DNA from: Syntrophales bacterium
Lineage (GTDB): Bacteria; Desulfobacterota; Syntrophia; Syntrophales; PHBD01
Assembly (NCBI GenBank): GCA_963668175.1
Contig: OY764159.1
Coordinates: forward strand, 4,384,001-4,448,000
Length of the DNA stretch: 64,000 nt
Direction of reading: 5' to 3'
How positions within the stretch are numbered: position 1 is the first letter of the stretch; each line of letters opens with the position of its first letter. Position numbers and translations under genes: made by a program. Of the stretch, positions 41,621 through 58,325 are shown piece after piece. The notes below the pieces were generated by a model that saw only the letters and a list, made by a program, of their open reading frames with translations, was not told the DNA's origin and made no database searches.

Positions 41621-42108
41621 GCCTTTCTTCGCGCAGCCTGCAGGAAGTTCCCGCACCGTTCCAGGGTGATCGAAAGCATGATCAGGAACCCGACGGGAAT
41701 AGCCAGATAGGGAAAGGCCATGGGTATTCCCATGGCCGGGGAGAATTGATTCAGATTGGCTATGGTCTGCAGCAGACCAAAATAGATCATGACTCCGCAG
41801 AAAGTCATCATCATGAGATACATCAATCCGGTGACGAAGGAGGACAAGCCCGGCGGGAGCTTCTCCGTCATAACGGACAGACTGACTTGATAGCCTTTTT
41901 GCAGACCGACGGCGCTTCCGGCCATCGTCGCCCATACGAGGGCATAAATGGCCGCTTCGGAAGACCAGCTGGGCATCGCGCCGAGGACGTAACGGCCTAC
42001 GACCTCATAGGGAATAATAACCGCCATGACGGCCATGGCAGCCACGGTCAATCCGGAAGCGATTTTCAGCAGCACCTTATTCAGCGCAGCCAGAGACGAC
42101 ATGATCAT
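41617..42108 (-). CDS. dctQ: TRAP transporter small permease
   Basis: 4 TMs, VVGRYV..WSSE; lies between dctP and dctM. Confidence 0.9.
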   Translation of the reverse strand: MIMSSLAALNKVLLKIASGLTVAAMAVMAVIIPYEVVGRYVLGAMPSWSSEAAIYALVWATMAGSAVGLQKGYQVSLSVMTEKLPPGLSSFVTGLMYLMMMTFCGVMIYFGLLQTIANLNQFSPAMGIPMAFPYLAIPVGFLIMLSITLERCGNFLQAARRKA

Positions 42109-43106
42109 TTCACGTTCAGGATGGCATCGACTTTTTCTTTACCGAATTGCTGAAAAAATTCTCCCATGGCCGGAAGCATGGCCTTCCGCCAGGTCTCTTT
42201 ATCGATGCCCTTCGTTACGGTCATGCCCTTTGACGCCAACTCGGAAATCTGCTTTTCCTCTGCATCCCTGCCGAGTTTTCGTTGATATTGAGCGACTTCC
42301 TGAGCGGTTTTCAGGATCATGTCCTGATCTTCCTTGGGAATGGCCTGCCATTTCTTCTGGCTGGCGATCACGACCGCCGGCGAATAGACGTGCTGCGTCA
42401 AGGACAGGTGCTTTTGAACTTCATTCAACTTTACCGAGTAGATGACGGCGATCGGATTTTCCTGGCCGTCGATCGTCTTTTGCTGCAGGGCTCCGTAGAC
42501 CTCGCCCCAGGCCATCGGCACAGGATTGACGCTTATCGCTTTCCACGCCGCTATATGAATCTTGTTTTCCATAGTCCTGATTTTCAGCCCCTTGGCGTCG
42601 GCGGGCAGTTTCACGGCCTGCCTGGAGTTGGTCAGATTGCGAAAACCGTTTTCCCAGAAGGCCAACCCTTTGAATTGGGCCTTGTCAAGGTCGCTCAGGA
42701 GTTGAAGACCGATGGGACCGTCAAGAACGGTGTCCACATGATGATAATCCCGAAAGAGAAACGGGATATCGAGAATGCCGACCGCCGGGCTGAAGCCGCT
42801 GAGAGGGCCGGTGGAACCGACATATAAATCGATCGTCCCCTGTTGGACGGCTTCCAGGAGTTCCCGCTCGCCTTTTCCAAGCTGCCCTTCCGGATATATG
42901 GTGATTTGAATACGTCCGCCGCTCCGTTCCTTCACCAGATCGGCAAACTTGCTCGCCCCCTGATTGTACGTATGGCTCATCGGGGTCGAACTGGCCAGTT
43001 TCATCTGTGCCTTGAATTCCCCCTTAGGCGCCTTCTCGGTGCCGCACCCGGCGACGGCCATCGCCATGAAGAAAACGACGATACAGCAACTGATTCTCTT
43101 CATCAT
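42105..43106 (-). CDS. dctP: TRAP substrate-binding protein (lipoprotein)
   Basis: WENGFR, GLKIRT, DGQENP; lipobox VAGC. Confidence 0.94.
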   Translation of the reverse strand: MMKRISCCIVVFFMAMAVAGCGTEKAPKGEFKAQMKLASSTPMSHTYNQGASKFADLVKERSGGRIQITIYPEGQLGKGERELLEAVQQGTIDLYVGSTGPLSGFSPAVGILDIPFLFRDYHHVDTVLDGPIGLQLLSDLDKAQFKGLAFWENGFRNLTNSRQAVKLPADAKGLKIRTMENKIHIAAWKAISVNPVPMAWGEVYGALQQKTIDGQENPIAVIYSVKLNEVQKHLSLTQHVYSPAVVIASQKKWQAIPKEDQDMILKTAQEVAQYQRKLGRDAEEKQISELASKGMTVTKGIDKETWRKAMLPAMGEFFQQFGKEKVDAILNVK

Positions 43107-43262
43107 AAATCCCCCCTCCTTCAAATTAAAGATGAAGCAGCATGGCAGGGCGCAAAGCCGCCCTGCCGCCGTTTTCCAACCCTTTAACCTTTATAGCGGA
43201 TAAATGCAAGCGAAGCCCGTCGGTCAGACAGGCATGTCGTTCTAACGCAACCTCAAGCTGCT

Positions 43263-45458
43263 CTACTTGGCCTTTGCCGCAGACAGGATCTTCTGCGGAG
43301 CAGCAACCCCCAGGCCCTTTCTGATCTTCTCCAGCATCGCCTTTTCTTTATCGCTGTATGCCCCGTCGACCAGTGCTATGCGTCTGGCTACTTCCAGGGC
43401 TTCCAGGCGATCTTCCGGATTCGGGATCATGGCGGCCAGGGCGGCCAGAGCCCTTTCCTCATCACACTGGAGGATTCTGGCCTGTGTTTTGACGATCCGC
43501 TTGAAAGTCGCGGGCCTGATCTTCTTCAACACCTTGTGCGTCTGGGCGATCCCTTCCGCAATCACATAATGCCTACGGCCGATGACGGGACTGGTCCTAG
43601 CCATGGCCATCATGACCCGGATCAGGCCTTCAGCCGTTCCCCCCTCCTCGAAGGCGAGGACACACGTCTTTTCCGCGGATGCTTCCGAAACGGCGGCCTG
43701 CTCCTTGTCCTCGGTCGGCATGAAGAAGTGATGGAGAAAGTCCTGACTGTAAATCCAGCGGAAGGCCTGTTCCTGAAAGCGATCCCGCGTGTCCCGATAG
43801 AGGTTCAGCATCTCTTCGATTGCAGAGGACATATTCTTTTCCAGCAAAACGAATGGATTGTCGGGCGAGACCGGGCGGCGGTTTTTCCTCGCTACAGAAG
43901 CTACGGAGGCCAGAGGGCGAAGCAGAGGATTCATATCGGAGATCATGTACCGCTGAGAACGCAACGGATGCATCCAGCGGATCATCTCCGCCGTCAATTC
44001 GGAAGACCACATCTGTACCCACGGGCGGAGAAATACACGATAGAGGTCGTCGTTGACGTTGGAGACGGCATTGACGACCTGAAAATCCTCTTCGTCTGCC
44101 GTGCCGTCGTCCATGGCGGCGATATGCTCCAGGGTCCGCTCCTCAAAAGCGGCCTTGAAATCCCCTGTCTTGACGTCGCCTTCGATAACCATCTCGTAGA
44201 GTCCCGGGGGGAGGTATTCGATCATGTCGAAGTTGCTGATGATCTCCTTGTGTTCCTTCTTGGCGACGCTGGCGGACACGAAGATCCCCAGATGTCCGAT
44301 CTCCTCATGCACGACGTAAATGATGACCTGTCCCCTCTCTTTGATCTCATCCACGGAACGATAAACCCGGGGAATCCAGTTAAGGGCCTGCTGAACCGGT
44401 GTAATATTGTCGCCCCGCGAGGCGAATACCAGAATCGGACTTTCGATATTCTTCAGACTGATCTTCTCTCCGCGCCGCAATTCCAGGTCGCCCTTTTCCA
44501 GCTTATTCCCGACGAAGAGATTGCTGACGATAAAGTGAATCTCCTCCGCCGTCATCATGAAGAATCCGCCCCACCACTTCTCAAAGGCGAGAAAGCGGTG
44601 TTCTTCGGTATCGAGCTGTGAATAGACGTGGTAGTTCTTGCTCCAGAGGGTATTGGCCGGATTAAGCGATTCAAAGTTGGATACCAGATGGGCCCCGTCG
44701 AATTTCCCGTTGCCCAGGTCGCTGAGGAGGCTGTTCATCCAAATTCCTCCCACCAGACCGCCCTTGTACCGCATGGGGTTGACGCCTTCCACGCCAGCCC
44801 AATAGGAAAGAGGGGCTCCGTTCAGAACCAGCGGACCGGTTATATCCGGCCGATCGGCACAGAGAAGGGCCGCCGCCCATCCCGCCTGACAATTGCCGAT
44901 GATGGCCGGGTTATCCGCATAAGGATGTCGATTGACGACTTCCTCGACGAAGCGCACTTCGGCGGCTTCCACATCGGCAAGCGTCTGACCGGGTATGGGA
45001 TCCGTATAAAACAGGATGAAATAGACGGGGTGGTTATGGTCGAGGGCCATGCCTATTTCCGAATCCCTTTTGGAGCCGCCTATTCCCGGCCCATGGCCGG
45101 CCCGGGGATCGATGATGATGATGGGCCTTTTGGGGAGTTCGGGCATATGCTTCAGGTCTCTCCTCCGCCGCTCCTCTTCTTCCTTCAGTTTACTTGCCTC
45201 TTTCCGGCGATCGGAGATACGGACCAGGGCATAATTAACGGGCCGCTTGAAGGTCCGTCCGTCCAGAATCATCTCGTAATTGAACGTCAGCACCGGCGGC
45301 TGCCCGCTTTTTATATGCTCGATGTAGGTGTTGCCCCGCTTACGCATAATATCCATAAAAATAATGGACCGCTGAAGCGCATCCACACTGTAATCGAAAT
45401 AAGCTTTCATGCTGTCTCCGAGTGCCTCGGCTTCCTTACCGACGTTCAATGGCTCCAT
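43263..45458 (-). CDS. DUF3141 family alpha/beta-hydrolase (PHA synthase/depolymerase-like) with C-terminal TerB-like domain
   Basis: DPRAGHGPGIGG, GNCQAG Cys box, SRGDNITP, GHLGIF; C-terminal ALVDG..SDKEKAML. Confidence 0.8.
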   Translation of the reverse strand: MEPLNVGKEAEALGDSMKAYFDYSVDALQRSIIFMDIMRKRGNTYIEHIKSGQPPVLTFNYEMILDGRTFKRPVNYALVRISDRRKEASKLKEEEERRRRDLKHMPELPKRPIIIIDPRAGHGPGIGGSKRDSEIGMALDHNHPVYFILFYTDPIPGQTLADVEAAEVRFVEEVVNRHPYADNPAIIGNCQAGWAAALLCADRPDITGPLVLNGAPLSYWAGVEGVNPMRYKGGLVGGIWMNSLLSDLGNGKFDGAHLVSNFESLNPANTLWSKNYHVYSQLDTEEHRFLAFEKWWGGFFMMTAEEIHFIVSNLFVGNKLEKGDLELRRGEKISLKNIESPILVFASRGDNITPVQQALNWIPRVYRSVDEIKERGQVIIYVVHEEIGHLGIFVSASVAKKEHKEIISNFDMIEYLPPGLYEMVIEGDVKTGDFKAAFEERTLEHIAAMDDGTADEEDFQVVNAVSNVNDDLYRVFLRPWVQMWSSELTAEMIRWMHPLRSQRYMISDMNPLLRPLASVASVARKNRRPVSPDNPFVLLEKNMSSAIEEMLNLYRDTRDRFQEQAFRWIYSQDFLHHFFMPTEDKEQAAVSEASAEKTCVLAFEEGGTAEGLIRVMMAMARTSPVIGRRHYVIAEGIAQTHKVLKKIRPATFKRIVKTQARILQCDEERALAALAAMIPNPEDRLEALEVARRIALVDGAYSDKEKAMLEKIRKGLGVAAPQKILSAAKAK

Positions 45459-45559: not shown

Positions 45560-45874
45560 TTCATATCCTTAATATCGCGACCATATCCGGCGCCGTTACA
45601 GCTGACGGCGACACCGCCTCAGGACGCGAAACCGGCAGGCTCTTCTTACGCATACCCTGTAGATCTATTTTTTGGCTATCATCTATATATCAGACTTGAG
45701 GCTTTATGACAAACGGGATGGGTGATTGTTTTACCTCCGAGGCAGAACAGACGGGCATGCAGAAATACATTCGATGACCGTCACGTGCAGCGGATGGTCC
45801 GGCGGCAAACCGCCGGGGCGATATCTCTTGACATTAGCTATAAATATTAATGCGTTGAGCAAGCCCTGATCCAA

Positions 45875-45905
45875 TGTCAACCATCAAGAGATTATATGGT
45901 TGACA
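45875..45905. promoter_or_regulatory. BirA-type biotin operator overlapping the bio promoter
   Basis: Perfect 10-bp inverted repeat TGTCAACCAT-N11-ATGGTTGACA. The right arm contains TTGACA, with TATAGC 18 nt downstream. About 100 nt upstream of bioA. Confidence 0.88.
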
Positions 45906-46005
45906 AAAGTCCTCTCCAGTTGGTATAGCGCCATCTCTCGGTGGTGTCTGCTTGACGATCAGGACACCGTCGAGGCTGAAATACCCTTTGTCCGGGAGCG
46001 ATGGA

Positions 46006-47376
46006 ATGGAATCTTTACGACAAGATAACAAGCAGTTGGCAATCAACGACCGGCAGTATATTTGGCATCCCTTCACGCAAATGCAGCAGTATACGGCGGA
46101 GCAACCGGTCATCATAAAAGAGGGGTACGGTTGCATCCTGAAGGACATTGACGGAAATGAATATATCGACGGTGTATCCTCCCTCTGGACCAATGTCCAT
46201 GGTCACCGGAAAGCCCATCTCGATCAGGCCGTCAAAAATCAGATCGATCTGATCGCCCACTCCACCCTCCTCGGGCTTTCCAACGTACCGGCCATCCGGT
46301 GCGCGGAAATGCTCGTCCGCATAGCACCACCGGGATTGACCCGCGTATTTTACTCCGACAGCGGCTCGACGGCCGTCGAGATCGCCTTGAAGATAGCATT
46401 CCAGTATCATCAGCAAGCCCAAGACGGCCTTCGCGAGAAGAAGAAGTTCATCTCTCTCGTGAATGCCTATCACGGCGATACGATAGGGTCCGTCAGTGTC
46501 GGCGGCATCGATCTGTTCCACCAGGTGTACCATCCTTTGCTTTTTGATTCGTTTAAGGCGGAGTCCCCTTACTGTTACCGCTGCCCTTTCGGGAAATCTT
46601 ACCCGGACTGCAAAATGGAATGTTTTTGTCAGCTCGAAGATGTGGTGAAAGAGCATGCCCACGAGGTCTGCGCCCTGGTGATGGAACCCCTGGTTCAGGG
46701 GGCCGCGGGGATGTTGATGCAGCCTCCGGGATATTTGAAGAAGGTCCGCGACCTATGCACGGCCAATCGCATCTTCCTGATTGCGGATGAGGTCGCCGTG
46801 GGTTTCGGCAAGACGGGCAAAATGTTCGCCTGCGAACACGAAGGCGTGACGCCGGACATCATGACCGTGGCCAAGGGCATTACCGGCGGCTATCTCCCCT
46901 TAGCGGCCACGCTTGCCACGGAAGAGATCTACAGGGGATTCCTCGGCGAGTACGACGAGCTCAAGACGTTTTTCCACGGCCATACGTATACGGGCAACCC
47001 CCTGGCCTGTGCCGCGGCCATCGCCAATATGGAAATATTCGCGCAGGAAAAGGTCCTGGAAAAATTACAGGAAACCATCAGGCATCTCGCCGAACGGCTC
47101 GAGGCTTTCCGGTCGCTTGCCTGCGTCGGTGATATTCGCCAGAAAGGGATCATGGTCGGCATCGAACTGGTAAGCGAAAGGGAATCGAAAGAGCCCTTTC
47201 CGCTCAAAGACAACATCGGCCATCAGGTCACCCTGGAAGCAAGAAAACAAGGACTCATCATCCGTCCTCTCGGAGGAATCATCGTCATGATGCCGCCCCT
47301 GGCTGTGTCCATATCCGAAATCGACCGGATCTGCGACATCACCTACGACGCCATCAAAAAGGTCACCGAACGGTAA
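46006..47376 (+). CDS. bioA: Adenosylmethionine-8-amino-7-oxononanoate (DAPA) aminotransferase
   Basis: [53 protein letters not shown]. Confidence 0.96.
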
Positions 47377-47389
47377 ACGCGGGGACCCT

Positions 47390-47677
47390 ATGGAAATCAC
47401 CGGCACTTTCTTTTTCGATCCCGCCGACCGTATCTATCGGGACCATTTTCCTTCCCATCCGGTCGTACCGGGAACCCAAATCGTCCGCGCCTTCATGGAG
47501 GCCGTCCGAAGAGGGATACCGACGGCAAATCGTTTCGTCATCGACCATTTCAGGTTCCGGCATTTTATCGTCCCCGGGGAGTATTCTTACCGTATTCGGC
47601 CGGAAGAGAAGGGGCTTTCGTGTGCGCTGTTCGATCATGATCGTATCGTTGTAACCGGAAGGATGATCGTATCGTGA
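47390..47677 (+). CDS. Small hot-dog fold FabA/FabZ-like protein (His-bearing half)
   Basis: 95 aa; DHFPSHPVVPG matches the FabZ HFP..P..PG motif; FRHFIVPG. Confidence 0.75.
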   Translation: MEITGTFFFDPADRIYRDHFPSHPVVPGTQIVRAFMEAVRRGIPTANRFVIDHFRFRHFIVPGEYSYRIRPEEKGLSCALFDHDRIVVTGRMIVS

Positions 47678-48432
47678 ATATGACGTTTTCAGGAAAGCAT
47701 GCCCTCGTTTTGGGCGGAAGCTGCGAATTGGCGCTTGCTCTGGCTGATCGTTTCATAGAGACCGGTATCCGCCCCTTCTTAACCTTCAGAAACGAAGAAG
47801 GCAGGCAGCGAATCGAAGAACGCCTCGCTTCGTCTCAGGGGAAATTCGAGAACGTCTATTTCGATTTTGGGAAACCGGATACGATCAGTACATTATTCGC
47901 CGCCGTGGGTGAAGAGCTCGATTACCTCGTCGATTTCGCCCAGGGCAACTATGAGAGCTTTGTCGCGTCCGCAGACGGGGACGCGGTCGCCCGGTATATC
48001 CACGAAAATGTGGCCGTGCGCTCCCGACTTCTGAAAGAAGCGGGCCGTCTCATGTTGGCCAGAAAAAAAGGACGCATGGTGTTTGTTTCCTCGACAGCGG
48101 CTCTTTGGCCGAATCATGGACAGGGCTTCTATGCAGCTACAAAACTGGCAGCGGAAGCCCTCTACAAAAACATGGGCTTGGAACTGGGGAGACGAGGCGT
48201 CACGGCCGTTACCCTGAGGCCTGGCTATGTATATGCCGGACGCGGCCGGTCGTTTATCCAAAAAAACGAAATCGAAGTCATGCACAGAATACCGACGGAA
48301 AAAATACTGACCGCGGAAGAGATCGCGTCAGCCATCATGTTTCTCCTTTCGGACGGAGCCGCCGGCTTTAATGCTACGGAATTAACCATGGACGGCGGTC
48401 TCACGGCCGGCAAACAACTTCGGAGGATTTAA
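47674..48432 (+). CDS. SDR oxidoreductase, FabG-like 3-oxoacyl-ACP reductase
   Basis: VSS...YAATK catalytic residues, RPG, MDGG; atypical Gly-rich motif LGGSCELA. Confidence 0.8.
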   Translation: MNMTFSGKHALVLGGSCELALALADRFIETGIRPFLTFRNEEGRQRIEERLASSQGKFENVYFDFGKPDTISTLFAAVGEELDYLVDFAQGNYESFVASADGDAVARYIHENVAVRSRLLKEAGRLMLARKKGRMVFVSSTAALWPNHGQGFYAATKLAAEALYKNMGLELGRRGVTAVTLRPGYVYAGRGRSFIQKNEIEVMHRIPTEKILTAEEIASAIMFLLSDGAAGFNATELTMDGGLTAGKQLRRI

Positions 48433-48433
48433 G

Positions 48434-48799
48434 TTGGATCCATTCGTACAGATCAAAGAAATACTCATCAACCTTCTGGATATCGAAGGCCATGAGATCA
48501 CGCCGGAAACATACTTAATCAGGGACCTGGGCGCCGAATCGATCGATCTTCTGGAACTTGCCGTGGCCATCAGCGCCGAGTGCGGGGTCCAGGTGAACGA
48601 CAACGATATATTTCTCAAACCGTTGCGTCTTTATCTCGAGCAGGCCAAGGAAAGCGGCATCGATCCCGGAACCTACCTGGCGGAAAAATTCCCGTTTCTG
48701 ACAGGCCCGAGAATCAGGGAAATCCTGGCCGATATCCACCTGGGACCGGTGCTTAAAGTGAAGGATCTCACCGGTTACGTAGCCTGGAAGACATGTTGA
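48434..48799 (+). CDS. Acyl carrier protein with C-terminal insertion/extension
   Basis: ITPETYLIRDLGAESIDLLEL phosphopantetheine-site motif; 121 aa. Confidence 0.85.
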   Translation: MDPFVQIKEILINLLDIEGHEITPETYLIRDLGAESIDLLELAVAISAECGVQVNDNDIFLKPLRLYLEQAKESGIDPGTYLAEKFPFLTGPRIREILADIHLGPVLKVKDLTGYVAWKTC

Positions 48800-48901
48800 A
48801 GGGCGATAACGGATGCGCAGGAGTTTCAGCGGGGCCGATCAGCGAATCGAAGGCGTTTGTCTGAAGAATTGGATTCATAAAGTGCCCGGCATCGTAAGCT
48901 T

Positions 48902-49534
48902 ATGTCGATTTTAGATGAACTGACCACACAAAGAAGAAGCATCCGCACCTACAAGGCGGATATGCCCCCTGAAGAGTGGATCTCGGTGATGCTCCGGTGC
49001 GCTGCCAAAGCGCCGTCGCCCACAAACAGCCGCCCCGTCAGGTTCGTCCGGATAAAATCCCACGAGAAGCGTGCCTCCCTTCACCGGGCGATGCACCAGG
49101 GCTATCAAAACTTGCTGGAAGCGGCCAAGCAATGCGAGAAACCCCGGAGAAAAACGAATATCGTCAACGCCTACTGGCGGTACTCGGAATTTATCAACAA
49201 TGCCCCTCTGCTTTTCGCCGTCGGCGTTAAAACCGACGGTAACGGTTTTTCCAAAAGACTCTTCGAGGCCGAACTCATTTCCCGGGACGACAGAACGGAC
49301 ACCGATCTCGATATCACCGTCGGCCTGGCCTTGAAAGGGTTTCTCCTGAAAGGCACCGAACTCGGTCTCGGCATGTGCATCCTTACGGCGCCGCTCGTTT
49401 TTGCCGGCGATATCGACAAAATCCTCGGACTTTCCGGCATCCGCATCAAGTGCCTGGTAACGGCAGGCTATCCCCATGAAACGCCGCCCTACCTGGAAAG
49501 AATGCAGGCGTCCGATATGCTGTTGGAAATATAA
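48902..49534 (+). CDS. Nitroreductase-family flavoprotein
   Basis: RRSIRTY and APSPTNSRP FMN-binding motifs, LGLGMC, AGYP. Confidence 0.88.
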   Translation: MSILDELTTQRRSIRTYKADMPPEEWISVMLRCAAKAPSPTNSRPVRFVRIKSHEKRASLHRAMHQGYQNLLEAAKQCEKPRRKTNIVNAYWRYSEFINNAPLLFAVGVKTDGNGFSKRLFEAELISRDDRTDTDLDITVGLALKGFLLKGTELGLGMCILTAPLVFAGDIDKILGLSGIRIKCLVTAGYPHETPPYLERMQASDMLLEI

Positions 49535-50746
49535 ATGGACAGACGCGTCGTCATCACATCCATGGGCGTTGTTTCCTCCCTGGGGGACACTCCGGAAAAG
49601 ATCATGGCGAGCATTCGGAATGAAAAGGTCTCTTTTGCAAGACCGGCATTCGACAACGAAATCGTCATCAGCCCCATACGGCATTTTGTCCTCAAGGATT
49701 ATATCGGACGCTTCAAGAACGCCCGATATCTGATACGAGGCGCCCAACTGGGTGTGGCCTCCGCCGTGGTGGCCTTCAAGAGGGCCAACCTTGACGAGGG
49801 CATGACGGCCGACTGCGGCCTCTTTGTGGGAACGGGCCCGAACATGGACATCAGCGGTGAATTCCCCGATTTCGCCAGGGGCAAGCTGGATACGGACAAC
49901 CTGAACGCCCTCTGGATGCTGCGTTTTCTCCCCAACACGATGGCCTCGACGATTGCACAACTGACCGGAACGCACGGAGAGAATAGCACGATCACCACGG
50001 CCTGCGCCGCCTCCCTGCATGCCTTGGGCGAGGCGTTCCGGAAAATCAGGGACGGGTATCTTGATCTGGCCCTGGCCGGCGGCGGAGAGTCACGTATCAA
50101 TCCCATCGGTATCCTCGGTTATAAAAAAGCGCGGGCCTTAAACAGCGGCCCCGGGGCCCCGGAAAAGGCATCGCGGCCCTTCAACGAAGACAGATCGGGA
50201 TTCGTTCCGGGAGAAGGAGGCGCTTTTTTCCTCCTGGAAGACCTGGAACACGCCCGGAAGCGCAAGGCGGATATCTATGGCGAAATTTGCGGCTTTGGAA
50301 ATTCCCTGGACGGCGTAACCATGACCGCGCCCGATGCCGAAGGCATATGGGCCGAAAAGGCGATATTTTCGGCGTTCCATGAAGCAGGGGTTGCCCCGGC
50401 AGACATCGACCTTGTCTGCACGCACGGCACGGGGACCTGTCTCAACGATGCCATGGAGCATACCTTGATCAAGCGAATATACGGAACCCACAAACCCTAC
50501 CTGCTGGCGCTCAAATCATGGATCGGCCACCTATCGGCGGCCTGCGGGGCCGTTGAATCCGCCCTGCTTCTGATCTGCATGCAAAACGGCTATCTTCCGG
50601 AGATCCGCAATCTCAGCGCCCCCTGTGCGGATGACCTTAACTTCGTCCGGGAAGCCAGGACCTTCACGCCTCGGACGGCCGTCATCCAGAATTTCGGCTT
50701 CGGCGGCCAGAACGGCGCCCTGGTGATCAAGTCATGGAAAGAATAG
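49535..50746 (+). CDS. Beta-ketoacyl-ACP synthase (FabF/FabB-like)
   Basis: RVVITSMG, TACAAS (Cys), HGTGT (His), KSWIGH (His), NFGFGGQN. Confidence 0.93.
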   Translation: MDRRVVITSMGVVSSLGDTPEKIMASIRNEKVSFARPAFDNEIVISPIRHFVLKDYIGRFKNARYLIRGAQLGVASAVVAFKRANLDEGMTADCGLFVGTGPNMDISGEFPDFARGKLDTDNLNALWMLRFLPNTMASTIAQLTGTHGENSTITTACAASLHALGEAFRKIRDGYLDLALAGGGESRINPIGILGYKKARALNSGPGAPEKASRPFNEDRSGFVPGEGGAFFLLEDLEHARKRKADIYGEICGFGNSLDGVTMTAPDAEGIWAEKAIFSAFHEAGVAPADIDLVCTHGTGTCLNDAMEHTLIKRIYGTHKPYLLALKSWIGHLSAACGAVESALLLICMQNGYLPEIRNLSAPCADDLNFVREARTFTPRTAVIQNFGFGGQNGALVIKSWKE

Positions 50747-51171
50747 TTATCCATACGGGCCTCGATCATTTCGTCATGGTGGATGCGATCGACGGCATGG
50801 ACGAAAACCAGATCGACGGCGAGGTCACTCTTGAAAACGCCGATCCGACCCTGCTTCTTGAATCCCTGGCGCAATTGGCGGGCCTGCATATCCGCCATTC
50901 CCTCGACTTCACCAAACACGCCTTCCTGGTAAGGATCTCGGGAGCACCGCTTCCTGAGGAGAAATCCCTAACCGGTACGTACAGCCTGCGGGGAAAGCTG
51001 GTCAGCCGCAGCGAGGAGGCCTTCACCTACCGTTTGGAGGCCGGCGGGAAAAATGTTCCCGTCGTCCGCGGGCAGTTTCTCTTCGGCACGGTCGATTATA
51101 ATGACGATTTCCAAAAGGATATTTTACAGAAGCATTATCGAAAGGTCCTGGCATGCGCGAAGAGGAAATAA
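50734..51171 (+). CDS. Hot-dog fold FabZ-like protein (Glu-bearing half)
   Basis: HFVMVDAI and LLESLAQLAG resemble FabZ PFLLVD and IEAMAQ; no HFP motif. Confidence 0.65.
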   Translation: MERIVIHTGLDHFVMVDAIDGMDENQIDGEVTLENADPTLLLESLAQLAGLHIRHSLDFTKHAFLVRISGAPLPEEKSLTGTYSLRGKLVSRSEEAFTYRLEAGGKNVPVVRGQFLFGTVDYNDDFQKDILQKHYRKVLACAKRK

Positions 51172-52298
51172 AGGAAAGACTCAAAGTGCAGAAGCAGGCC
51201 GGCCTCTATCGGGACCCCCCGGAGATAACCCGCCGGGCCGGTAAATTTGTTTATATCAAGGATCGGAAATATCTGAATTTCGCTTCCAACGACTACCTCG
51301 GCCTCGCTTCTTCCCGGGAAGTACGGAAAAGGGTCGCGGCAAATTTTGCGAAATTCGGTACATCGTCTTCATCCTCGCGGCTCGTGTCCGGCAATTACGG
51401 AATCATCTCCCGGGCGGAAGAAGCCTATGCCCGGCACTTCGGCTACGACCAGGCCCTCTTCTTCCCCAGCGGCTATCAGGCCAACATCGGCCTTATTTCC
51501 GGATTGTTCGACCAGGAAGACACCATTATCTTCGACAAGCATATCCATGCCAGCAGCGTCAAGGGAATAGGCATGAGCCGCGCCGCGTTTTTCGGCTACA
51601 ATCACAACAACATGCCGCACCTGGCCAGACGTCTTGAGGCCAACGCAAACAGACGCCCGGCCGTGCTTACGGAAGCCCTTTTCAGCATGGACGGCGATCT
51701 GCTCGACGTGGAAGGGCTCGACCGTCTCAAGAAGCAATACGACTTTTTAACCATCGTCGACGAGGCCCATTCCTTCGGTGCCCTGGGCCCGGGAGGCCGC
51801 GGCATAGGACGGACGGTGGCGGATGTTGCCGTCGGCACCTTCGGCAAGGCCTTCGCACTCTTCGGGGCCTTTGTCCTCATGCCGGAGGGCTTCAAGGAAT
51901 ATCTCTACAATTTTTCCTCGCCCCTCATCTATTCGACCACATTGCCGGAAGCCCATGCGGCCTCGGCGATAGATATTCTGGATATTGTGCAAAGCAGCGG
52001 CCACAGACGGAGAAAGCTCCGCCATATCAGCGGCCGCATGAAAGATCGGCTGCAACGGGAGGGATTTAAAACCTACGGGGATGCCCACATCCTTGCCGTC
52101 GAAATCGGCGCGGAGGAATTGGCGGTCGCCGTCGCCGGAAGGATGAGAGAAAGGGGCATCTTCGTATTCCCGGCCAGATTTCCAACCGTTCCGCTTCATA
52201 AGGCCATTTTAAGGATCAGCATGACCGCACGGCATACGGATCGAGATGCCGCTTGCTTTATCGACACACTCAAGGAGGCCATCCATTGCGAGAATTAA
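51153..52298 (+). CDS. bioF: 8-amino-7-oxononanoate synthase
   Basis: NFASNDYLG, SRLVSG, HASS, FSMDGD, DEAH, GTFGKA, PTVP. Confidence 0.93.
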   Translation: MREEEIKERLKVQKQAGLYRDPPEITRRAGKFVYIKDRKYLNFASNDYLGLASSREVRKRVAANFAKFGTSSSSSRLVSGNYGIISRAEEAYARHFGYDQALFFPSGYQANIGLISGLFDQEDTIIFDKHIHASSVKGIGMSRAAFFGYNHNNMPHLARRLEANANRRPAVLTEALFSMDGDLLDVEGLDRLKKQYDFLTIVDEAHSFGALGPGGRGIGRTVADVAVGTFGKAFALFGAFVLMPEGFKEYLYNFSSPLIYSTTLPEAHAASAIDILDIVQSSGHRRRKLRHISGRMKDRLQREGFKTYGDAHILAVEIGAEELAVAVAGRMRERGIFVFPARFPTVPLHKAILRISMTARHTDRDAACFIDTLKEAIHCEN

Positions 52299-52975
52299 TC
52301 TTTGTTACAGGTACGGACACGGGCGTGGGCAAAACGGTCCTGTCGCTCATCCTCATGCAGTATTTCTTCAGGAAAGGGAAAAAGCCGTTCTATCTGAAGC
52401 CGGCACAGACCGGATGTATCGATCCTTACGATACCGACAGCGACGCCCGGTTTATTTACAGCCACATACCGCAGTTGGGCGGACAGAATCCCGCCGACTC
52501 GGTGATCCTGTGTTTCAAGAATCCCAAAGCGCCTTTTTTTGCCGCCAGGGATGAAGGAAAAGTCCTCGACATGGAGAAAATATTCAAGGTCATCTCAGAT
52601 CGTCACCGGACTTCCGATCCCTTGATCGTCGAGGCGGCCGGAGGGCTCATGGTCCCCATGACGGACCAGATGCTTGTCGTGGATTTCGTCAAGCTGCTCA
52701 ATGCCAGGCCCCTGCTTGCCGCACGCGCGGGACTGGGCACGATCAACCACACCCTCCTCTCCTTTGAAAGCCTGCGGGCGCGTGGGATACAACCGGCCGG
52801 CATCGTCTTCATGGACTCGGGTCCGTCACCCACCGACAAGGAAATGATTGCGGAAAACATCGAAGCCGTCAGACAATTTTCCGGGATAACCGTCGCCGGT
52901 ACCATCGGGGCCATCGGCGATTTCTCCAACCCGGGAGACGACTGCTTCCGGCCCCTGGAGAAGATCTACGGATAA
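52286..52975 (+). CDS. bioD: Dethiobiotin synthetase
   Basis: VTGTDTGVGKT, KPAQTG, EAAGG, LGTINH; TTG start after AAGGAGG. Confidence 0.95.
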   Translation: MRELIFVTGTDTGVGKTVLSLILMQYFFRKGKKPFYLKPAQTGCIDPYDTDSDARFIYSHIPQLGGQNPADSVILCFKNPKAPFFAARDEGKVLDMEKIFKVISDRHRTSDPLIVEAAGGLMVPMTDQMLVVDFVKLLNARPLLAARAGLGTINHTLLSFESLRARGIQPAGIVFMDSGPSPTDKEMIAENIEAVRQFSGITVAGTIGAIGDFSNPGDDCFRPLEKIYG

Positions 52976-53229
52976 TCTCGGGCAGCAAGCCCGTATTCAC
53001 TTTTAACTTCAGCCATTAGTCGTTGCGGGACGGACAGGAGCATTTGTCATATCAAGGCACCAAAGATGTGGCGGAAAACGGAAGCCCATGTTATAGGTTA
53101 TCAGACAATCGGCACGACAGACCTGTCTGGAGATGACATGTCCGGGGCAGTTTGCGGTACGGTTGGATTTGTTTTCCGTTGTAATAATGGACGGATATTG
53201 TCATCCCAAAGCCCGAGAACACATATTTT

Positions 53230-54093
53230 ATGACCTATCGTTATCGTCTTACCGAAGATGACATAGCCGGATTCAAAGACTGGTTTCTGAACTATACGGC
53301 ATCCTTTCATTCGGGCGCCGAACATGACGAGCAAAGCTACGTCCTCAAGAAGAGACATTCCTTCAAAGTCGCCCGGGCGATAAGGATTGTCGGCGAGTCA
53401 CTGGGCCTGAATCCTAACGATCTCCGGGTGGCCGAGGCGATGGCGTTACTGCACGATGTGGGTCGATTTGAACAGTATGCGCGATACAGAACATTCGCCG
53501 ATGCCAAGTCGGTGGACCATGCCGATCTGGGCGTCCAGGTCCTTCGTGAGTGCCGAATCCTGGATACCCTGGGACAACAGACCCGGGATATTATTCTGAA
53601 GGCCATTTCTTACCATAACCGACTCAGTATTCCCGCCGACGAGACGGAGGAATGCCTCTTTTTCAGCCGGCTCTTACGGGACGCGGACAAAATCGATATT
53701 TTTCGCGTCGCCACCTGTTATTACCTGGACAAGGACTCGGAGCGCAATGCCGCCATTGAGCTCGACCTGCCCGATTCCGACGAAATCTCCGGAGAGATCA
53801 TCCGATGCCTGGAAGAAGGCCGTCTCGTCCGGAGCGGGCTGTTAAAATCTCTGAATGACTTTAAGCTCCTCCAGATGGGTTGGGTTTACGATATGAATTT
53901 TCTGCCCGCCCTGCAACTGATCCGGGAAAAAGGCTACATCGAAGCCATTCGCCTGGCTCTCCCGGCTTCAGACGATGTTGACAGGGCATATGCCCGGGTC
54001 GCGGCATATCTTCATGAACGGCTGAACGGCGGGCAGAAGCTTGTCAATCGGGAACCGTGCGGGTCGGCGAAGGAGGCCGGTTTCTTACGGTGA
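53230..54093 (+). CDS. HD domain protein
   Basis: KKRHS...LLHDVGRFEQ...HNR...RDADKID. Confidence 0.88.
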   Translation: MTYRYRLTEDDIAGFKDWFLNYTASFHSGAEHDEQSYVLKKRHSFKVARAIRIVGESLGLNPNDLRVAEAMALLHDVGRFEQYARYRTFADAKSVDHADLGVQVLRECRILDTLGQQTRDIILKAISYHNRLSIPADETEECLFFSRLLRDADKIDIFRVATCYYLDKDSERNAAIELDLPDSDEISGEIIRCLEEGRLVRSGLLKSLNDFKLLQMGWVYDMNFLPALQLIREKGYIEAIRLALPASDDVDRAYARVAAYLHERLNGGQKLVNREPCGSAKEAGFLR

Positions 54094-54228
54094 TTATATC
54101 TTTCCGAACCCGGTAGACGAACCGTAGCGGAGATCGAAGCCGACAAAGTCCGCAGGTATTGTTTCCATTGATTTTCTTACTATTTTGTGGTTTTATTCCG
54201 GGTAATCGAACAGAGGAAGGAAATCTTT

Positions 54229-54945
54229 ATGGACAGACAGATCGTGGATGACGCCCGCAAGGCCAATGTCGATTTCCTGATCAGGCATATCCCCTTCCTG
54301 GCTTGCCTGACCCCGGACGAAATTACCAGCATAAGAAATATCGTCATTGAAAGGCAGTTCGCCAAAAACCAGGTTATTCTTCACGAAGAAGAAACGTCCA
54401 ACTTTTTCTATTTTATCTATACGGGCGAAGTCAAAATCATTCAAATCAGCGTGGAGGGAAAAGAAAGAATTCTTGCCATCCATAAACGCGGCGAATACTT
54501 CGGCGAAATGTCCATTCTGGACGGCAAGACCTTGCCGGCGACCGTCGTGGCCATGGAAGATACCCGGATCGGATTGATATCCCGGGAAAATTTCATGAGA
54601 TACCTGCTGAGCAACGAGAAGGTTTTAAAGGAACTTATCGCCATCCTCTGCTCAAGATTGAGGGAATCCTGGCTCATGATCAAGGTCTTAAGCTTTGCCG
54701 ATGCGGAGCAGAGAGTGCGGGTCGTTCTGAAAAATATGGGGGATCACTTCGGCGTCAAGGATCAGCGCGGCATATTGATCAGTCTGCGCTTGACCCACAA
54801 CGACATCGCCAACCTGGCATCCATCTCCCGGGAAACGGTGACCCGAACGCTAAACCGTCTCGAAGACAACGGTGAAATTGAAGTTCTCGAGGGTAAAAAA
54901 GTCCTCATGAAACCCCTCTTCACGGAAAGAATGGACATCCTCTGA
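54229..54945 (+). CDS. Crp/Fnr family transcriptional regulator
   Basis: cNMP-binding fold (GEVKI, FGEMS) plus HTH SRETVTR. Confidence 0.93.
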   Translation: MDRQIVDDARKANVDFLIRHIPFLACLTPDEITSIRNIVIERQFAKNQVILHEEETSNFFYFIYTGEVKIIQISVEGKERILAIHKRGEYFGEMSILDGKTLPATVVAMEDTRIGLISRENFMRYLLSNEKVLKELIAILCSRLRESWLMIKVLSFADAEQRVRVVLKNMGDHFGVKDQRGILISLRLTHNDIANLASISRETVTRTLNRLEDNGEIEVLEGKKVLMKPLFTERMDIL

Positions 54946-55070
54946 GGAGGGCTATCGGGTCCGGTCTTGAACAACCCGTTTCCGAACGACTTTCCCCATC
55001 GGCGGCCTGCCAAATCCCTTTTTAACCATCCCGCTTCACACCTCGTTCCATCCAGTTACTGCACCTCTTT

Positions 55071-55086
55071 TGTGACCTGGATCACA
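55071..55086. promoter_or_regulatory. CRP-type binding site
   Basis: Exact TGTGA-cctgga-TCACA, followed by TGGTATAAA (-10-like) at 55103-55111. Confidence 0.8.
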
Positions 55087-55188
55087 GATCATTGTCCCAT
55101 TCTGGTATAAATCTGACATCAAAGCCGGCAGGTCGGCATTGGGACCTGGGATCAACTGTTTAACACTAGGAACGAAAGGAGGCCAACC

Positions 55189-55461
55189 ATGGATACGATC
55201 ATGTCAACCGTCGTCGAAATTCCCATGAATCATATTGCCATGGTCCTGTCGATCAGTACCCTCGCTCTGATTTTCGGGCATATCAGACTGGCGGTTCTGA
55301 TCAATTATTGTTTCATCATTTACAGCGGTCGCCTATGGGATATGAATATTTTCGGCGACCCGGCCGCATCCAGCCTTAATGCTCCTGCCATTGCCTTCAC
55401 CGGAATCTGGATCGTCATCATTCTTCTGGCGGCAGTCAGTCTGGCGTTCCACCGAAATTGA
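55189..55461 (+). CDS. Small hypothetical membrane protein (90 aa)
   Basis: Strong AAAGGAGG RBS; about 3 hydrophobic segments. Confidence 0.75.
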   Translation: MDTIMSTVVEIPMNHIAMVLSISTLALIFGHIRLAVLINYCFIIYSGRLWDMNIFGDPAASSLNAPAIAFTGIWIVIILLAAVSLAFHRN

Positions 55462-55530
55462 AAGATTCCGATGAGTACGCCGCGGGAGGGCAGGCATGAT
55501 TCGTTACAAGAAAGGCGGCGGGAGGTCGCC

Positions 55531-55755
55531 ATGGAGTATCAAGAGATTTCAATCATAGAGGCCATAGCCTTAATTGTCGATCACAGGGCGGACAAAGCCA
55601 TTGACAGCGACGGGGCGATCCTGAAACTGTTCAAGGAAGGATTCGTTTTGCTGGACAGCGGCGCCAAGATCTTTACGGAAGTGGGATTCAATGCGAGATC
55701 ACGAGGCCGTATCGACATCTATGACAAATACGTCCGCAAGTACGTCATTCACTGA
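55531..55755 (+). CDS. Small hypothetical protein (74 aa)
   Basis: GGAGG RBS; MEYQEISIIEAIALIVDH...YVRKYVIH. Confidence 0.65.
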   Translation: MEYQEISIIEAIALIVDHRADKAIDSDGAILKLFKEGFVLLDSGAKIFTEVGFNARSRGRIDIYDKYVRKYVIH

Positions 55756-55793
55756 ATATGGAATATCTGAAGGGCGGGGGTCCTCTTTCTCCT

Positions 55794-56753
55794 TCATCCG
55801 GAAGCCCGGCCGCCGAAGAATATGGACCATCCTGCCAGGAGAGAAGCCGGCACTAAGGAAACCGCCCCCGAGGCCTCGGAAACCGGCGTGAAACCGCAGT
55901 GCGTACAGTCGATATGCCCCCGCCGCCTGGCATAACATCCTACCGAGATTTGCCCGTCGGGATCGACATTGATCAATACGTCGTCGTGACATATCCAATC
56001 GTTCCGGATCATGGCCCGGAGGCTTCGTTCCGAATTCAGGATCGGAAACCCCTTTTTTTTAAGCTGCACGGCCGATTCTATGGCGTTTTCGCGCTCCGGC
56101 GGCAACAACGCCAGATGCTCCTCGCCACGGCCGTAAGGGTAAAAAAGCTGGATTGTCACGCCTCTTACCGACGCTATCTGCCGAATCTCTCGCAGCATCA
56201 TTTCCATATCCCGCCAATTCTCCCGGTTCAAAGTAAAATGAACGAGGATGTTGGCATGGGAGGCATGCTGCAGATGATGCCAGACTTGAGCGTAGGAACC
56301 GCTGCGCAGCCGGTCATGCGTCTCTGCCGTACCGTCCACGCTCACCCAGAGGATATCGGCGGGAACGGACAGGGGAAATGTGCCGTTGGTCGTTACGGCC
56401 ACGCGGGGAAACAGCCCCTTGGTATACAGCACGAGATCGGACAGGTTTCGGCCGCCGTCCCGCCATAGGAACGGCTCCCCCCCTTCAAAAACAACGATCT
56501 GCGTTCCCTTTCTTCTTAGCTTCTCCAGGGAAAGAACGGCCGTATCCCAATCCATGTGGGCCCGTTCTTCATCCGCCCTCATGTGGAAAGGACACGCTCG
56601 GCAGGCGAGGTTGCACCGGTATGTCAATTTGAAGCTTGCCAAAAGAGGAATATTTTGTCCGAGCAGCTTGCGGCGGATAAAATATTTCAAGAGGCTGGCG
56701 GCAAAAAGCATTTGATTACATGTACGTTGCAAAAACCATCCGGTTTTTGTCAT
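55794..56753 (-). CDS. Radical SAM protein with C-terminal Cys cluster (HpnH-like N-terminus)
   Basis: CNLACRAC, GGEP, TTNG, SVDG; C-terminal C..GCY..CTHCG. Confidence 0.88.
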   Translation of the reverse strand: MTKTGWFLQRTCNQMLFAASLLKYFIRRKLLGQNIPLLASFKLTYRCNLACRACPFHMRADEERAHMDWDTAVLSLEKLRRKGTQIVVFEGGEPFLWRDGGRNLSDLVLYTKGLFPRVAVTTNGTFPLSVPADILWVSVDGTAETHDRLRSGSYAQVWHHLQHASHANILVHFTLNRENWRDMEMMLREIRQIASVRGVTIQLFYPYGRGEEHLALLPPERENAIESAVQLKKKGFPILNSERSLRAMIRNDWICHDDVLINVDPDGQISVGCYARRRGHIDCTHCGFTPVSEASGAVSLVPASLLAGWSIFFGGRASG

Positions 56754-56825
56754 TTATTCCGGAACCGGACGTAAGGTGAATCATTCAAGGCCGCAACGAC
56801 CCATTCACCTTCGGCGACCGGGGAA

Positions 56826-57140
56826 TCAGCAGCAACTGCATCCCCCTCCGCACGCCGCCCCGGCGGGCAGATTGGAAGTCAATTTAAAGCCGGATCCCTG
56901 CTCCGTTTCGATGAAGTCGATATGAATCGGCTTTGCATCTTCGAACAGTTCCTTCTCAATCAGAAAAGCGATGCCCTTTTCCGTAAATTGAAGGTCGCTG
57001 TCCTGCAGGTCGTCAAGCGCCATCCCCAGAGCAGGGCCGCCGCAACCGGCATGAACATGAATTCTTATGGTATGGGGTTCCTCCTGGGTCTTGAGGAATT
57101 CTTTGATCATCTCGCTCGCCTTGTCACTTACCTCTAACAT
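56826..57140 (-). CDS. IscA/HesB family protein (Cys form)
   Basis: LEVSDKA, GCGGPALGMALD, IDF, C-terminal CGGGCSCC. Confidence 0.88.
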   Translation of the reverse strand: MLEVSDKASEMIKEFLKTQEEPHTIRIHVHAGCGGPALGMALDDLQDSDLQFTEKGIAFLIEKELFEDAKPIHIDFIETEQGSGFKLTSNLPAGAACGGGCSCC

Positions 57141-57521
57141 ACTGCCTCCAATCATGGCAAAAGTGTCATTGTACTGCCGTTTTATCATCAAAAGACGAAG
57201 AACGATCGGGACATACAAGCCCTATCGTCCTTTCGCCGCAGGAGTAATATAGTCACCCTTGCCCAGGATGGCAAATAAAGCAAGCAGATTTTTTTCGTCC
57301 GGCAGCCGGAACCGGCGCAGCGAAGGGAAAGCCGCGATGCTTCAAGATGTCTCTTTTCATCTCGTTGTGATATATTCGTCGTTACGAGGAAGGACTGTCC
57401 GGACGTGCAGTCGAATCCCCATACGAGGAAAGCCCGATGTTCCCCGTGCAGCCCCGGGAAACGGCAGCAGAAGGCCGCGCAGTCCATGGTCTGATTCTGA
57501 TATTCATTAAAGGGATGGAGA

Positions 57522-58325
57522 ATGCCGAAAATCAGGATACGGGACATCGATATCCATTACGAATCGGCCGGCGAAGGTCCGTCCCTCGTCTTTATCCACG
57601 GCCTCGGTTCGAGCACGAGGGACTGGGAAAAGCAGGTCGCCTTCTTTTCTTCCCGATACCGTGTTGTCACCTTTGATTGCCGCGGCCACGGCCAATCGGA
57701 CAAGCCCCGGGGGCCGTACAGCGTCCCGATGTTTGCCGAAGACGCCGCAGGGTTGATAAAATCCCTGGGCATCGCCCCCGCTCACATCGTGGGGCTCTCC
57801 ATGGGGGGTATGATCGCCTTTCAGCTGGCCGTCTCGGAGCCCGATCTCGTCAAGACCATGGTGATTGTCAACAGCGGTCCGGCAATGGTTCTTCGATCAT
57901 ATAAAGAAAAATGGATGTTCTTCAAAAGGAGACTCATCGCGCGTTTCCTTGGAATGCGCATGATGGGGAAGTTTTTGGCACAGATTCTCCTTCCCGAGCC
58001 TGAACAGGAACCGCTAAGGAAGATTCTTGTCTCGCGATGGTCCGAAAACGACCGTCGGGCCTATTTAGATTCGATGAAGGCCCTTTTCGGATGGAGCGTC
58101 ATGGATAAAGTGAAGGCGATCCGTTGCCCCGCCCTGATCGTTGCGGCCGATCAGGACTATACGCCGGTTGCCGCCAAGGAGGCCTACGCGGCCCTGATGC
58201 CTCACGCGGAAGTCGTTGTCATCCATAAGTCCCGTCATTTAACGCCTATCGACCAACCCATACCGTTCAATGAGGCCGTTATGGCTTTCCTCCTTCGTTA
58301 CAGCAATTCGGGAACAGAGGCATGA
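57522..58325 (+). CDS. Alpha/beta hydrolase (PcaD-like fold)
   Basis: HGLG, DCRGHG, GLSMGG nucleophile elbow, C-terminal His. Confidence 0.9.
   Translation: MPKIRIRDIDIHYESAGEGPSLVFIHGLGSSTRDWEKQVAFFSSRYRVVTFDCRGHGQSDKPRGPYSVPMFAEDAAGLIKSLGIAPAHIVGLSMGGMIAFQLAVSEPDLVKTMVIVNSGPAMVLRSYKEKWMFFKRRLIARFLGMRMMGKFLAQILLPEPEQEPLRKILVSRWSENDRRAYLDSMKALFGWSVMDKVKAIRCPALIVAADQDYTPVAAKEAYAALMPHAEVVVIHKSRHLTPIDQPIPFNEAVMAFLLRYSNSGTEA

Follow-up and report, generated by a model that had tools for sequence, protein, structure and literature searches.

In the biotin pathway, the making of the pimelate moiety is the part that varies and that is understood least. The 64-kb window analyzed here belongs to the single-contig genome of a Syntrophales bacterium (4,567,304 bp, completeness rated 100%) and contains a biotin operon with its own set of fatty acid synthase (FAS)-like genes. 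Nine open reading frames (ORFs) fill positions 45952-52975 of the plus strand with nearly no intergenic space (Table 1). Between bioA and the bioF-bioD pair stand six genes, which encode a small hot-dog protein (hot-dog 1), a short-chain dehydrogenase/reductase (SDR), an acyl carrier protein (ACP), a nitroreductase-fold flavin mononucleotide (FMN) protein, a ketosynthase (KS), and a second hot-dog protein (hot-dog 2). The operon probably encloses a private, ACP-dependent module that makes pimeloyl-ACP for BioF without the methyl-ester mask of BioC and BioH.

Table 1. Genes and sites of the biotin operon, with positions in the 64-kb window.
Feature	Position	Strand	Basis
BirA-type operator	45874..45906		aTGTCAACC-N15-GGTTGACAA, 100 nt upstream of bioA ATG, read directly
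bioA, adenosylmethionine-8-amino-7-oxononanoate transaminase, 456 aa	46006..47376	+	TIGR00508 549 bits, cut-off 405
hot-dog 1, 95 aa	47390..47677	+	FabA/FabZ weak, E about 1e-4 (FabA 1.5e-4); ApeI-like E 0.04
SDR, 252 aa, FabG-like candidate 3-oxoacyl-ACP reductase	47674..48432	+	adh_short_C2 4e-28; TIGR01830 95 bits, below cut-off 298
ACP, 121 aa	48434..48799	+	PP-binding 6e-9
nitroreductase-fold FMN protein, 210 aa, candidate enoyl-ACP reductase	48902..49534	+	PF00881 2e-28
FabF/FabB-class KS, 403 aa	49535..50746	+	both ketoacyl-synt domains; fabF model 286 bits
hot-dog 2, 145 aa	50734..51171	+	predicted hot-dog fold from structure model only
bioF, 8-amino-7-oxononanoate synthase, 381 aa	51153..52298	+	TIGR00858 327 bits, below cut-off 426; Aminotran_1_2 1e-45
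bioD, dethiobiotin synthase, 229 aa	52286..52975	+	TIGR00347 134 bits, cut-off 83
weak terminator-like hairpin, possible operon end	52979..52993	+	4 nt past bioD

The nine-gene order, with all genes on the plus strand, had been laid out in a preliminary description of this DNA and is borne out by the ORF positions and family assignments. The junctions, too, are as described there. The hot-dog 1 and SDR genes overlap by 4 nt (GTGA), the SDR and ACP genes are 1 nt apart, the ACP and nitroreductase genes are 102 nt apart, and the nitroreductase gene abuts the KS gene with a gap of 0 (TAA then ATG). The overlaps between KS and hot-dog 2, hot-dog 2 and bioF, and bioF and bioD are 13, 19, and 13 nt. 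For BioF, TIGR00858 is the best of 11 models despite its sub-cut-off score. The bioA start is more likely the ATG at 46006, with GGGAG 7 nt before it, than the TTG at 45952 where the ORF opens. Likewise, bioD more likely starts at the TTG at 52286, preceded by AAGGAGG at 52272-52278, than at 52253 where its ORF opens, and its homologues begin to align only at residue 16-17 of that longer frame. Upstream of bioA, promoter scanning gave no sigma-70-like site on the plus strand. Terminator-like sites in the region number 10 against 9.3 in shuffles, without excess, so the hairpin after bioD is weak evidence of an operon end.

The BirA-type operator that the preliminary description placed ahead of bioA is a perfect palindromic site. 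A scan of the whole 4.57-Mb genome for the pattern TGTNAACC-N13-17-GGTTNACA, with up to 1 mismatch, returns only two sites, both with 0 mismatches, where about 0.09 perfect sites are expected at equal base frequencies. One lies upstream of bioA and the other, 2.9 Mb away, between divergent bioB and bifunctional birA (HTH_11 + BPL_LplA_LipB + BPL_C). By this pattern, the operon would be repressed by BirA, and the regulon would comprise the two sites of bioB-birA and the window operon. The window operator fits the delta-proteobacterial BirA sites in Table 1 of Rodionov et al. 2004 (PMC545781), as far as the accessible text of that paper gives them.

The genome carries bioB (372 bits) besides bioA, bioD, and bioF. 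It lacks BioC (best match 60 bits, cut-off 185) and BioH (best match 84 bits, cut-off 207), and searches of the complete genome found no BioG, BioW, or P450 over threshold; BioK, BioV, and BioJ were not searched for. The missing bioC, bioH, bioG, and bioW, noted earlier for the operon, are missing genome-wide. The signature enzymes of the BioC-BioH, BioW, and BioI routes were not found in the genome.

At 57522-58325 (+), 4.5 kb downstream of bioD and immediately ahead of a gene for a LysE-type translocator, lies an alpha/beta hydrolase gene (Abhydrolase_1, 2.8e-31). The possibility that it encodes a hidden BioH was weighed and discarded. Its 67 bits against the cut-off of 207 are like those of three other genomic hydrolases, four unrelated genes (two on the other strand) lie between it and bioD, and there is no BioC present to make an ester. 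The hydrolase is probably unrelated to biotin.

The arrangement of the cassette recurs, wholly or in part, in related loci. Ten related loci were compared, seven from 401 genomes sampled within the same phylum and three from metagenome-assembled genome (MAG) records (Syntrophaceae, SAR324, Desulfobacterales); at each of them, only homologues of the window's nine genes were sought. The related-locus search alone gave 3 loci, and word-index searches gave 10 hot-dog 2 and 5 hot-dog 1 homologues. Hot-dog 2 lies between KS and bioF in all ten loci, which span at least five families, at hot-dog 2 identities of 25-56%. Homologous cassettes mostly unlinked to bio genes, which by the preliminary description would speak against the pathway, are not what these loci show. 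The full order from bioA through hot-dog 1, SDR, ACP, nitroreductase, KS, hot-dog 2, and bioF to bioD recurs in four loci (L044, L045, L049, and L017). The nitroreductase gene is inside the cluster in these four and in L018, at 46-69% identity, that is, above 40% among the clusters, and is a variable part of the cassette. Operators with 0-1 mismatches precede the clusters in five of the seven loci with an upstream region (L044, L045, L049, L017, and L019), and none was found upstream of the clusters in L046 and L047. The clusters of L044 and L045 further include bioB and birA, placed around the operator.

One of the ten loci is reduced. In L052 (G231:C98:1-8314), only KS, hot-dog 2, and bioF are together; ACP, SDR, hot-dog 1, nitroreductase, and bioA are all missing from the 4.6 kb upstream of KS. 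The cassette can thus be split.

Clusters of this kind have been described. In two Desulfovibrio species, Rodionov et al. 2004 (PMC545781) saw that the bio operons under BirA control contain five FAS-like genes, and they put forward a new route to the pimeloyl precursor. In Desulfovibrio vulgaris, the transposon fitness data of Trotter et al. 2023 (PMC10102598) show that the importance of DVU2558-2565 and of the unlinked nitroreductase DVU1220 is confined to growth without biotin. The same paper notes similar clusters in two other Desulfobacterota orders and in Desulfurispirillum, and a nitroreductase-like gene inside the clusters of Syntrophobacter fumaroxidans and Desulfobacter vibrioformis. 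It proposes malonyl-ACP elongation on a specialised ACP without methyl esters, names the nitroreductase as candidate enoyl reductase, and leaves the biochemistry still to be done. The candidate uncharacterised pathway offered as a novelty in the preliminary description is hence the same hypothesis as that of Trotter et al. 2023, with roots in Rodionov et al. 2004. Its remark that no biochemical characterisation was known agrees with the literature search, which found none of the Desulfovibrio-type pimeloyl route in full-text literature, subscription journals being largely uncovered.

As described in the accessible part of PMC10102598, the cluster of D. vulgaris Hildenborough (DVU2558-DVU2565) resembles the window operon in having two FabZ-like hot-dog proteins, an SDR like 3-oxoacyl-ACP reductase, a specialised ACP, and a FabF-like KS among bioA, bioF, and bioD, a BirA site, and a genome without bioC, bioH, and bioW. 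Unlike that cluster, the window has its bioB and birA 2.9 Mb off behind their own operator and its nitroreductase gene inside the operon. The window proteins were compared with DVU1220 and the other DVU proteins by the paper's description, not by sequence. The clusters of S. fumaroxidans and D. vibrioformis, likened to the window by description as well, share with it the phylum Desulfobacterota and the nitroreductase-like gene inside the cluster. The window operon likely follows this Desulfovibrio-type route, in the variant whose cluster includes a nitroreductase-like gene. The operon adds one more example to a pathway type that has been described and has genetic support, and both the cluster and the proposed role were already known. 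What is added here are the hypotheses of a split-site dehydratase, a remodelled KS pocket with an invariant Arg, and an extended ACP, together with the variability of the nitroreductase.

The carrier extends beyond the four helices of a normal ACP. It has a canonical four-helix core bearing Ser36 and a conserved three-helix C-terminal extension (about residues 78-120). In nine of nine cassette ACPs, E35, S36, and D38 (E-S36-I-D) are invariant and the extension is conserved, as are L61, L89, R93, and D111. The structure model (pLDDT 94.6) has 7 helices, with those added at residues 78-85, 91-103, and 109-120. A Foldseek search with the model returned only canonical ACPs matched over the core (best E 1.9e-3), and no solved structure covers the extension. 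The protein is 30% identical to the housekeeping acpP product, whose gene adjoins fabF elsewhere in the genome.

The KS is closest to FabF, with a score against the fabF equivalog (TIGR03150) of 286 bits that lies below the membership cut-off of 494, and is 32% identical to the housekeeping fabF product. It shares the fold of FabF (KAS II) and aligns end to end with the Bacillus subtilis enzyme. The triad C157/H297/H332 and the F389 gate correspond to Cys163/His303/His340/Phe400 of FabF. Among 11 cassette KS sequences, 83 columns are invariant, and 29 of these differ from the genome's own FabF. An invariant S186-R187 pair, unlike FabF, occupies FabF positions 192-193. Residue 193 of FabF, which we take to line the acyl pocket, aligns with Arg187, and by this alignment Arg187 may face the KS pocket and bind the omega-carboxylate of the substrate. 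Further invariants that are specific to the cassette and unlike FabF are Arg68, His147, Glu149, and Arg358. The back gate also differs, with Ile108 and Phe202 of FabF replaced by invariant P102 and Y196. The role of this gate in the acyl pocket and its effect on chain length are described in bioRxiv 10.1101/2021.02.13.431092.

The SDR carries S140 and Y153-x-x-x-K157, with R39 after the second strand, and is at most 29% identical to its genomic paralogues. The usual FMN motif, R-R-S-x-R, is found in the nitroreductase-fold protein. Among the NCBIfam models, the protein matches the FbiB C-terminal domain best, with a score of 46.7 bits that falls far short of the cut-off of 250. Among solved structures, it matches 3gfa (a putative nitroreductase, 2.3e-11), iodotyrosine deiodinase (6.6e-9), a BluB-like protein (3.3e-7), and FbiB (7e-6), which are all of the nitroreductase superfamily. 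The known classes of enoyl-ACP reductase are FabI, FabL, and FabV of the SDR type and FabK, an FMN TIM barrel, and the fold of the candidate falls outside them.

The two hot-dog proteins are best understood against FabZ, a homodimer whose active site spans the interface, with a His contributed by one chain and a Glu by its partner. In hot-dog 1, H19, F20, P21, P24, P27, and G28 are invariant in 12 sequences (H19-F-P-x-x-P-x-x-P-G), and profile comparison with FabZ (3e-6) and ApeI (6qsr_A, 1.6e-4) aligns H19 on the catalytic His of FabZ. Where FabZ has its catalytic Glu, hot-dog 1 has Arg33, and its homologues vary at this position. PF22818 (ApeI-like) is precomputed on five of five hot-dog 1 homologues, and hot-dog 1 itself scores 14.6 bits against it, under the gathering cut-off of 28.5. 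Against the FabZ models TIGR01750 and NF000582, it reaches 21-22 bits where the cut-offs are 113-155, outside FabZ membership. One homologue of hot-dog 1, in genome G343 (L046:6893-7330, +), reaches about 145 aa through a long insertion, rich in Pro and Ala, ahead of the last strand; in L047, of the same lineage, tblastn finds no hot-dog 1.

Hot-dog 2 has no Pfam or NCBIfam match even at E 10 and no ApeP-like (PF22817) hit. Its family is small, with 225 cluster representatives at E ≤ 1e-3, 181 at 1e-10, and 55 at 1e-30 among 1.84 billion. In 123 sequences the sole invariant column is E43, within LLLESLAQ (E-x-x-A-Q motif), which the profile places on the Glu of FabZ; no His motif is present. 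The structure model (pLDDT 89) has a hot-dog fold and superposes on FabZ (3d6x) with a TM of 0.66-0.68 and an rmsd of 1.9 Å, and on chain B of ApeI:P (6qsr_B) with a TM of 0.63. The top Foldseek E-values belong to the hot-dog thioesterases HI1161 and PA1618 (E about 5e-6, TM 0.57-0.60). Feature neighbours of hot-dog 2 include ApeP-like clusters.

The pair thus holds complementary FabZ half-sites, with the His in hot-dog 1 only and the Glu in hot-dog 2 only, and neither protein has a paralogue in the genome. Both catalytic motifs of the FabZ homodimer are recognisable across the pair, which shares its fold; unlike FabZ, each protein holds one catalytic residue and is far below the FabZ cut-offs. 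With a single catalytic residue kept per protein, one site of a heterodimer would be live and the other dead. Complex prediction for the two proteins, run three times with both alignments and alongside 3 controls, gives a score of 0.92 in all three runs and 0.01 for the best control; the 0.92 mark is reached by 116 of 157 solved complexes and by 2 of 215 mismatched pairs. Contact agreement between runs is at least 98%, and the partner pLDDT is 91. The predicted interface comprises residues 12-23 and 27-38 of hot-dog 1 and 37-46 of hot-dog 2, with T29 and Q30 of hot-dog 1 touching E43. The score supports binding of the two proteins, and their heterodimer may carry one composite site (His19 + Glu43) and one dead site. 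A comparable pair is ApeI:ApeP of the aryl-polyene type II polyketide synthase (PKS) (6qsr), which also joins a short (~95-119 aa) and a longer (~145-152 aa) hot-dog protein. Unlike ApeI:ApeP, the window proteins are under both Pfam thresholds, and pathway, substrate, and genomic context differ.

A dedicated pimeloyl-thioester route is proposed because gene content, regulation, and genome context all fit it. The claim of the preliminary description that the six inserted genes form a private elongation cycle feeding BioF draws support from the operator, the genome context, and the adjacency in ten of ten loci. In the scheme that we infer for the substrates, the primer, Arg187, the heterodimer, and the enoyl reductase, the dedicated 121-aa ACP would be malonylated, and the KS would load a dicarboxylic acyl group, malonyl and then glutaryl, on Cys157 and condense it with malonyl-ACP. 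The free omega-carboxylate would be housed in a shortened polar pocket, in which P102, Y196, and S186-R187 replace the hydrophobic FabF back gate. The 3-oxo group would be reduced by the SDR, the hydroxyacyl product dehydrated at the composite site of hot-dog 1 and hot-dog 2, and the enoyl thioester reduced by the nitroreductase-fold protein. Two rounds would lead from C3 through C5 to C7, and pimeloyl-ACP would then pass to BioF. Such a route would resemble the BioC-BioH route of Escherichia coli in its two type II FAS-style rounds, which start at a malonyl primer and end in an ACP-bound C7 dicarboxylate for BioF. E. coli uses the housekeeping FAS and ACP with a methyl-ester mask, whereas the window has private enzymes and a private ACP and lacks BioC and BioH.

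It is possible, though we would stop short of calling it probable, that the cassette is a complete and self-contained "pimelate synthase" that extends a dicarboxylate without a mask on a private seven-helix ACP, with a KS whose short polar Arg pocket binds the omega-carboxylate and sets the stop at C7, a split-site dehydratase, and an enoyl-ACP reductase of the nitroreductase fold. Three parts of the cassette would then be without a characterised counterpart, and the nitroreductase-fold enzyme would be a new structural class of enoyl-ACP reductase.

The distribution of the cassette was surveyed in the 401 genomes with profiles of hot-dog 2. A first profile (A1, from 11 close sequences) matched 9 genomes, one of them through a 21-bit fragment with stops, and was too narrow; it was replaced by a profile of 123 sequences (A2). 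With A2, 15 genomes match at E ≤ 1e-5, of which 8 are strong (E ≤ 3e-23, the window's genome included); the 7 weak matches (E 2.5e-7 to 7.9e-6) were left uncounted as carriers. BioC-like genes, at a threshold of E ≤ 1e-35, occur in 105 genomes (23 over the cut-off) and BioW in 9, with a union of 110. The preliminary description had expected mutual exclusion between the cassette and bioC/bioH/bioW, and the sample shows no consistent co-occurrence with BioC or BioW: BioC-like genes or BioW occur in none of the 8 strong cassette genomes. The most telling case is genus g77, where BioC is found in four species (G079, G146, G293, G391), BioW in four (G207, G237, G265, G367), and the cassette in G177 and G343, with no overlap among the ten genomes, which suggests repeated replacement of the pimelate route.

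Several points weigh against a private module that works as outlined above. A search of the literature turned up no biochemical evidence for any step. The product of the first condensation on a malonyl primer, 3-oxoglutaryl-ACP, is a beta-keto acid prone to decarboxylation, a difficulty for that route. The pocket placement of Arg187 comes from its alignment with FabF residue 193. Similar complexes have been solved (6qsr, FabZ dimers), and the 0.92 score of the hot-dog pair may therefore reflect likeness rather than binding. Of the nine loci with the ACP-KS stretch, four (L046, L047, L048, and L019) have no nitroreductase gene between ACP and KS, and L052 has none adjacent. In four of four genomes without the clustered gene, no homologue of it was found anywhere with the window protein as query (E ≤ 1e-5). 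The D. vulgaris nitroreductase is only distantly related, according to PMC10102598. A FabK-like gene in the genome (201.6 bits) could do the enoyl reduction. The genome has three FabH-like genes elsewhere, none near either bio locus, whose scores of 281, 144, and 139 bits do not reach the 292 required by the fabH model; they were sought with this model rather than a BioZ-specific one, and a BioZ-type route could in principle draw on them. Finally, the chance of 0 of 8 carriers having BioC-like genes or BioW, given 110 of 401, is about 0.075 and not significant alone; the 8 carriers are related, so the pattern is consistent with exclusion but short of proof, and two of the 7 uncounted weak genomes (G162, G176) have BioC-like genes.

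The alternatives mostly concern single steps. The one with the most in its favor, which we nonetheless hold to be rather unlikely, gives condensation, ketoreduction, and dehydration to the cassette and the enoyl step to a housekeeping reductase, while the nitroreductase-fold protein has some different function, for instance supplying electrons, protecting an intermediate, or catalysing a side reaction. The patchy occurrence of the nitroreductase gene and the FabK-like gene speak for this, and to our knowledge no nitroreductase-fold enoyl-ACP reductase is known. The gene nevertheless abuts that of the KS and is retained in the five other loci at the identities given above, and the nearest characterised relatives of its product act on non-nitro substrates, among them the FbiB C-terminal domain, which reduces a C=C bond next to a carboxylate. 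A housekeeping reductase is an alternative also named by Trotter et al. 2023 (PMC10102598), whose text, as available, reports on the other side that the unlinked D. vulgaris nitroreductase is specifically needed without biotin. It is less likely still that the same cassette uses another primer, a catabolic glutaryl-CoA or glutaryl-ACP that undergoes one round to 3-oxopimeloyl-ACP in a BioZ-like manner, so that malonyl is never the primer. This primer would sidestep the unstable 3-oxoglutaryl intermediate, has a precedent in BioZ, and would suit the remodelled KS pocket, which could serve one chain length as well as two. Against it, the cluster encodes neither an acyltransferase nor a FabH-type initiator that could load a CoA primer, the normal substrate of FabF-class enzymes is acyl-ACP, and none of the ten loci, where only the window's nine genes were sought, has a linked glutaryl-forming gene.

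A quite improbable role for hot-dog 2 is the release or transfer of the C7 product, as a thioesterase or as a gatekeeper of chain length, in which case hot-dog 1 would dehydrate alone or with a housekeeping FabZ. The thioesterases at the top of the Foldseek E-values and the constant place of the gene beside bioF fit such a role. The TM and rmsd values are better for FabZ than for those thioesterases, however, the sole invariant residue falls on the catalytic Glu of FabZ, and the heterodimer model sets E43 against the hot-dog 1 helix that follows His19. Without the FabZ Glu, hot-dog 1 would be incomplete alone, and as BioF takes an ACP thioester, release by a thioesterase would be wasteful. It is very improbable that the FAS-like genes produce something else (a lipid or polyketide) and share no more than their location with the bio genes. 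No cassette product has ever been measured, and the genome has several other KS clusters. Such a product would nevertheless be at odds with the operator control, the overlapping and abutting genes, the ten-of-ten adjacency to bioF, a complete genome in which no other pimelate route was found, and the biotin-specific fitness phenotypes of the D. vulgaris homologues described in the accessible text of PMC10102598.

For the private pimeloyl-ACP module, the window operon offers a compact form. Of the recognised routes, only that of the Desulfovibrio type is backed by genetics and still without biochemistry. All five proposed activities and the carrier are linked here, which makes the operon suited to reconstitution. 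Candidate key residues are His19 of hot-dog 1, Glu43 of hot-dog 2, and Pro102, Tyr196, and Arg187 of the KS. If the nitroreductase-fold protein is the enoyl reductase, an enzyme step that has been studied intensively would gain a new class. For the biological production of C5-C7 diacids, a synthase acting on free dicarboxylates would be of interest as well.

The genes around the operon are of other kinds. Just upstream, 43263-45458 (-) encodes a 731-aa DUF3141 protein (784 bits), whose C-terminal domain is TerB-like and which weakly resembles polyhydroxyalkanoate (PHA) synthases, and 42105-43124 encodes a DctP-type solute-binding protein. Downstream of bioD, an HD/HDIG-domain protein and a Crp/Fnr-type regulator are encoded at 53230-54945 (+), and a radical-SAM protein and a small protein with weak likeness to Fe-S biosynthesis at 55794-57218 (-); no biotin link was seen for the genes at 53230-57218. 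Elsewhere, two more groups of three KS-like genes each are present at C1:731819-736884 and at C1:4454653-4466188, the latter starting 6.6 kb past the window end. An eighth KS-like match, C1:4019209-4020036, stands beside a FabH-like gene at 4022321. The other KS groups may be further specialised lipid or polyketide clusters.

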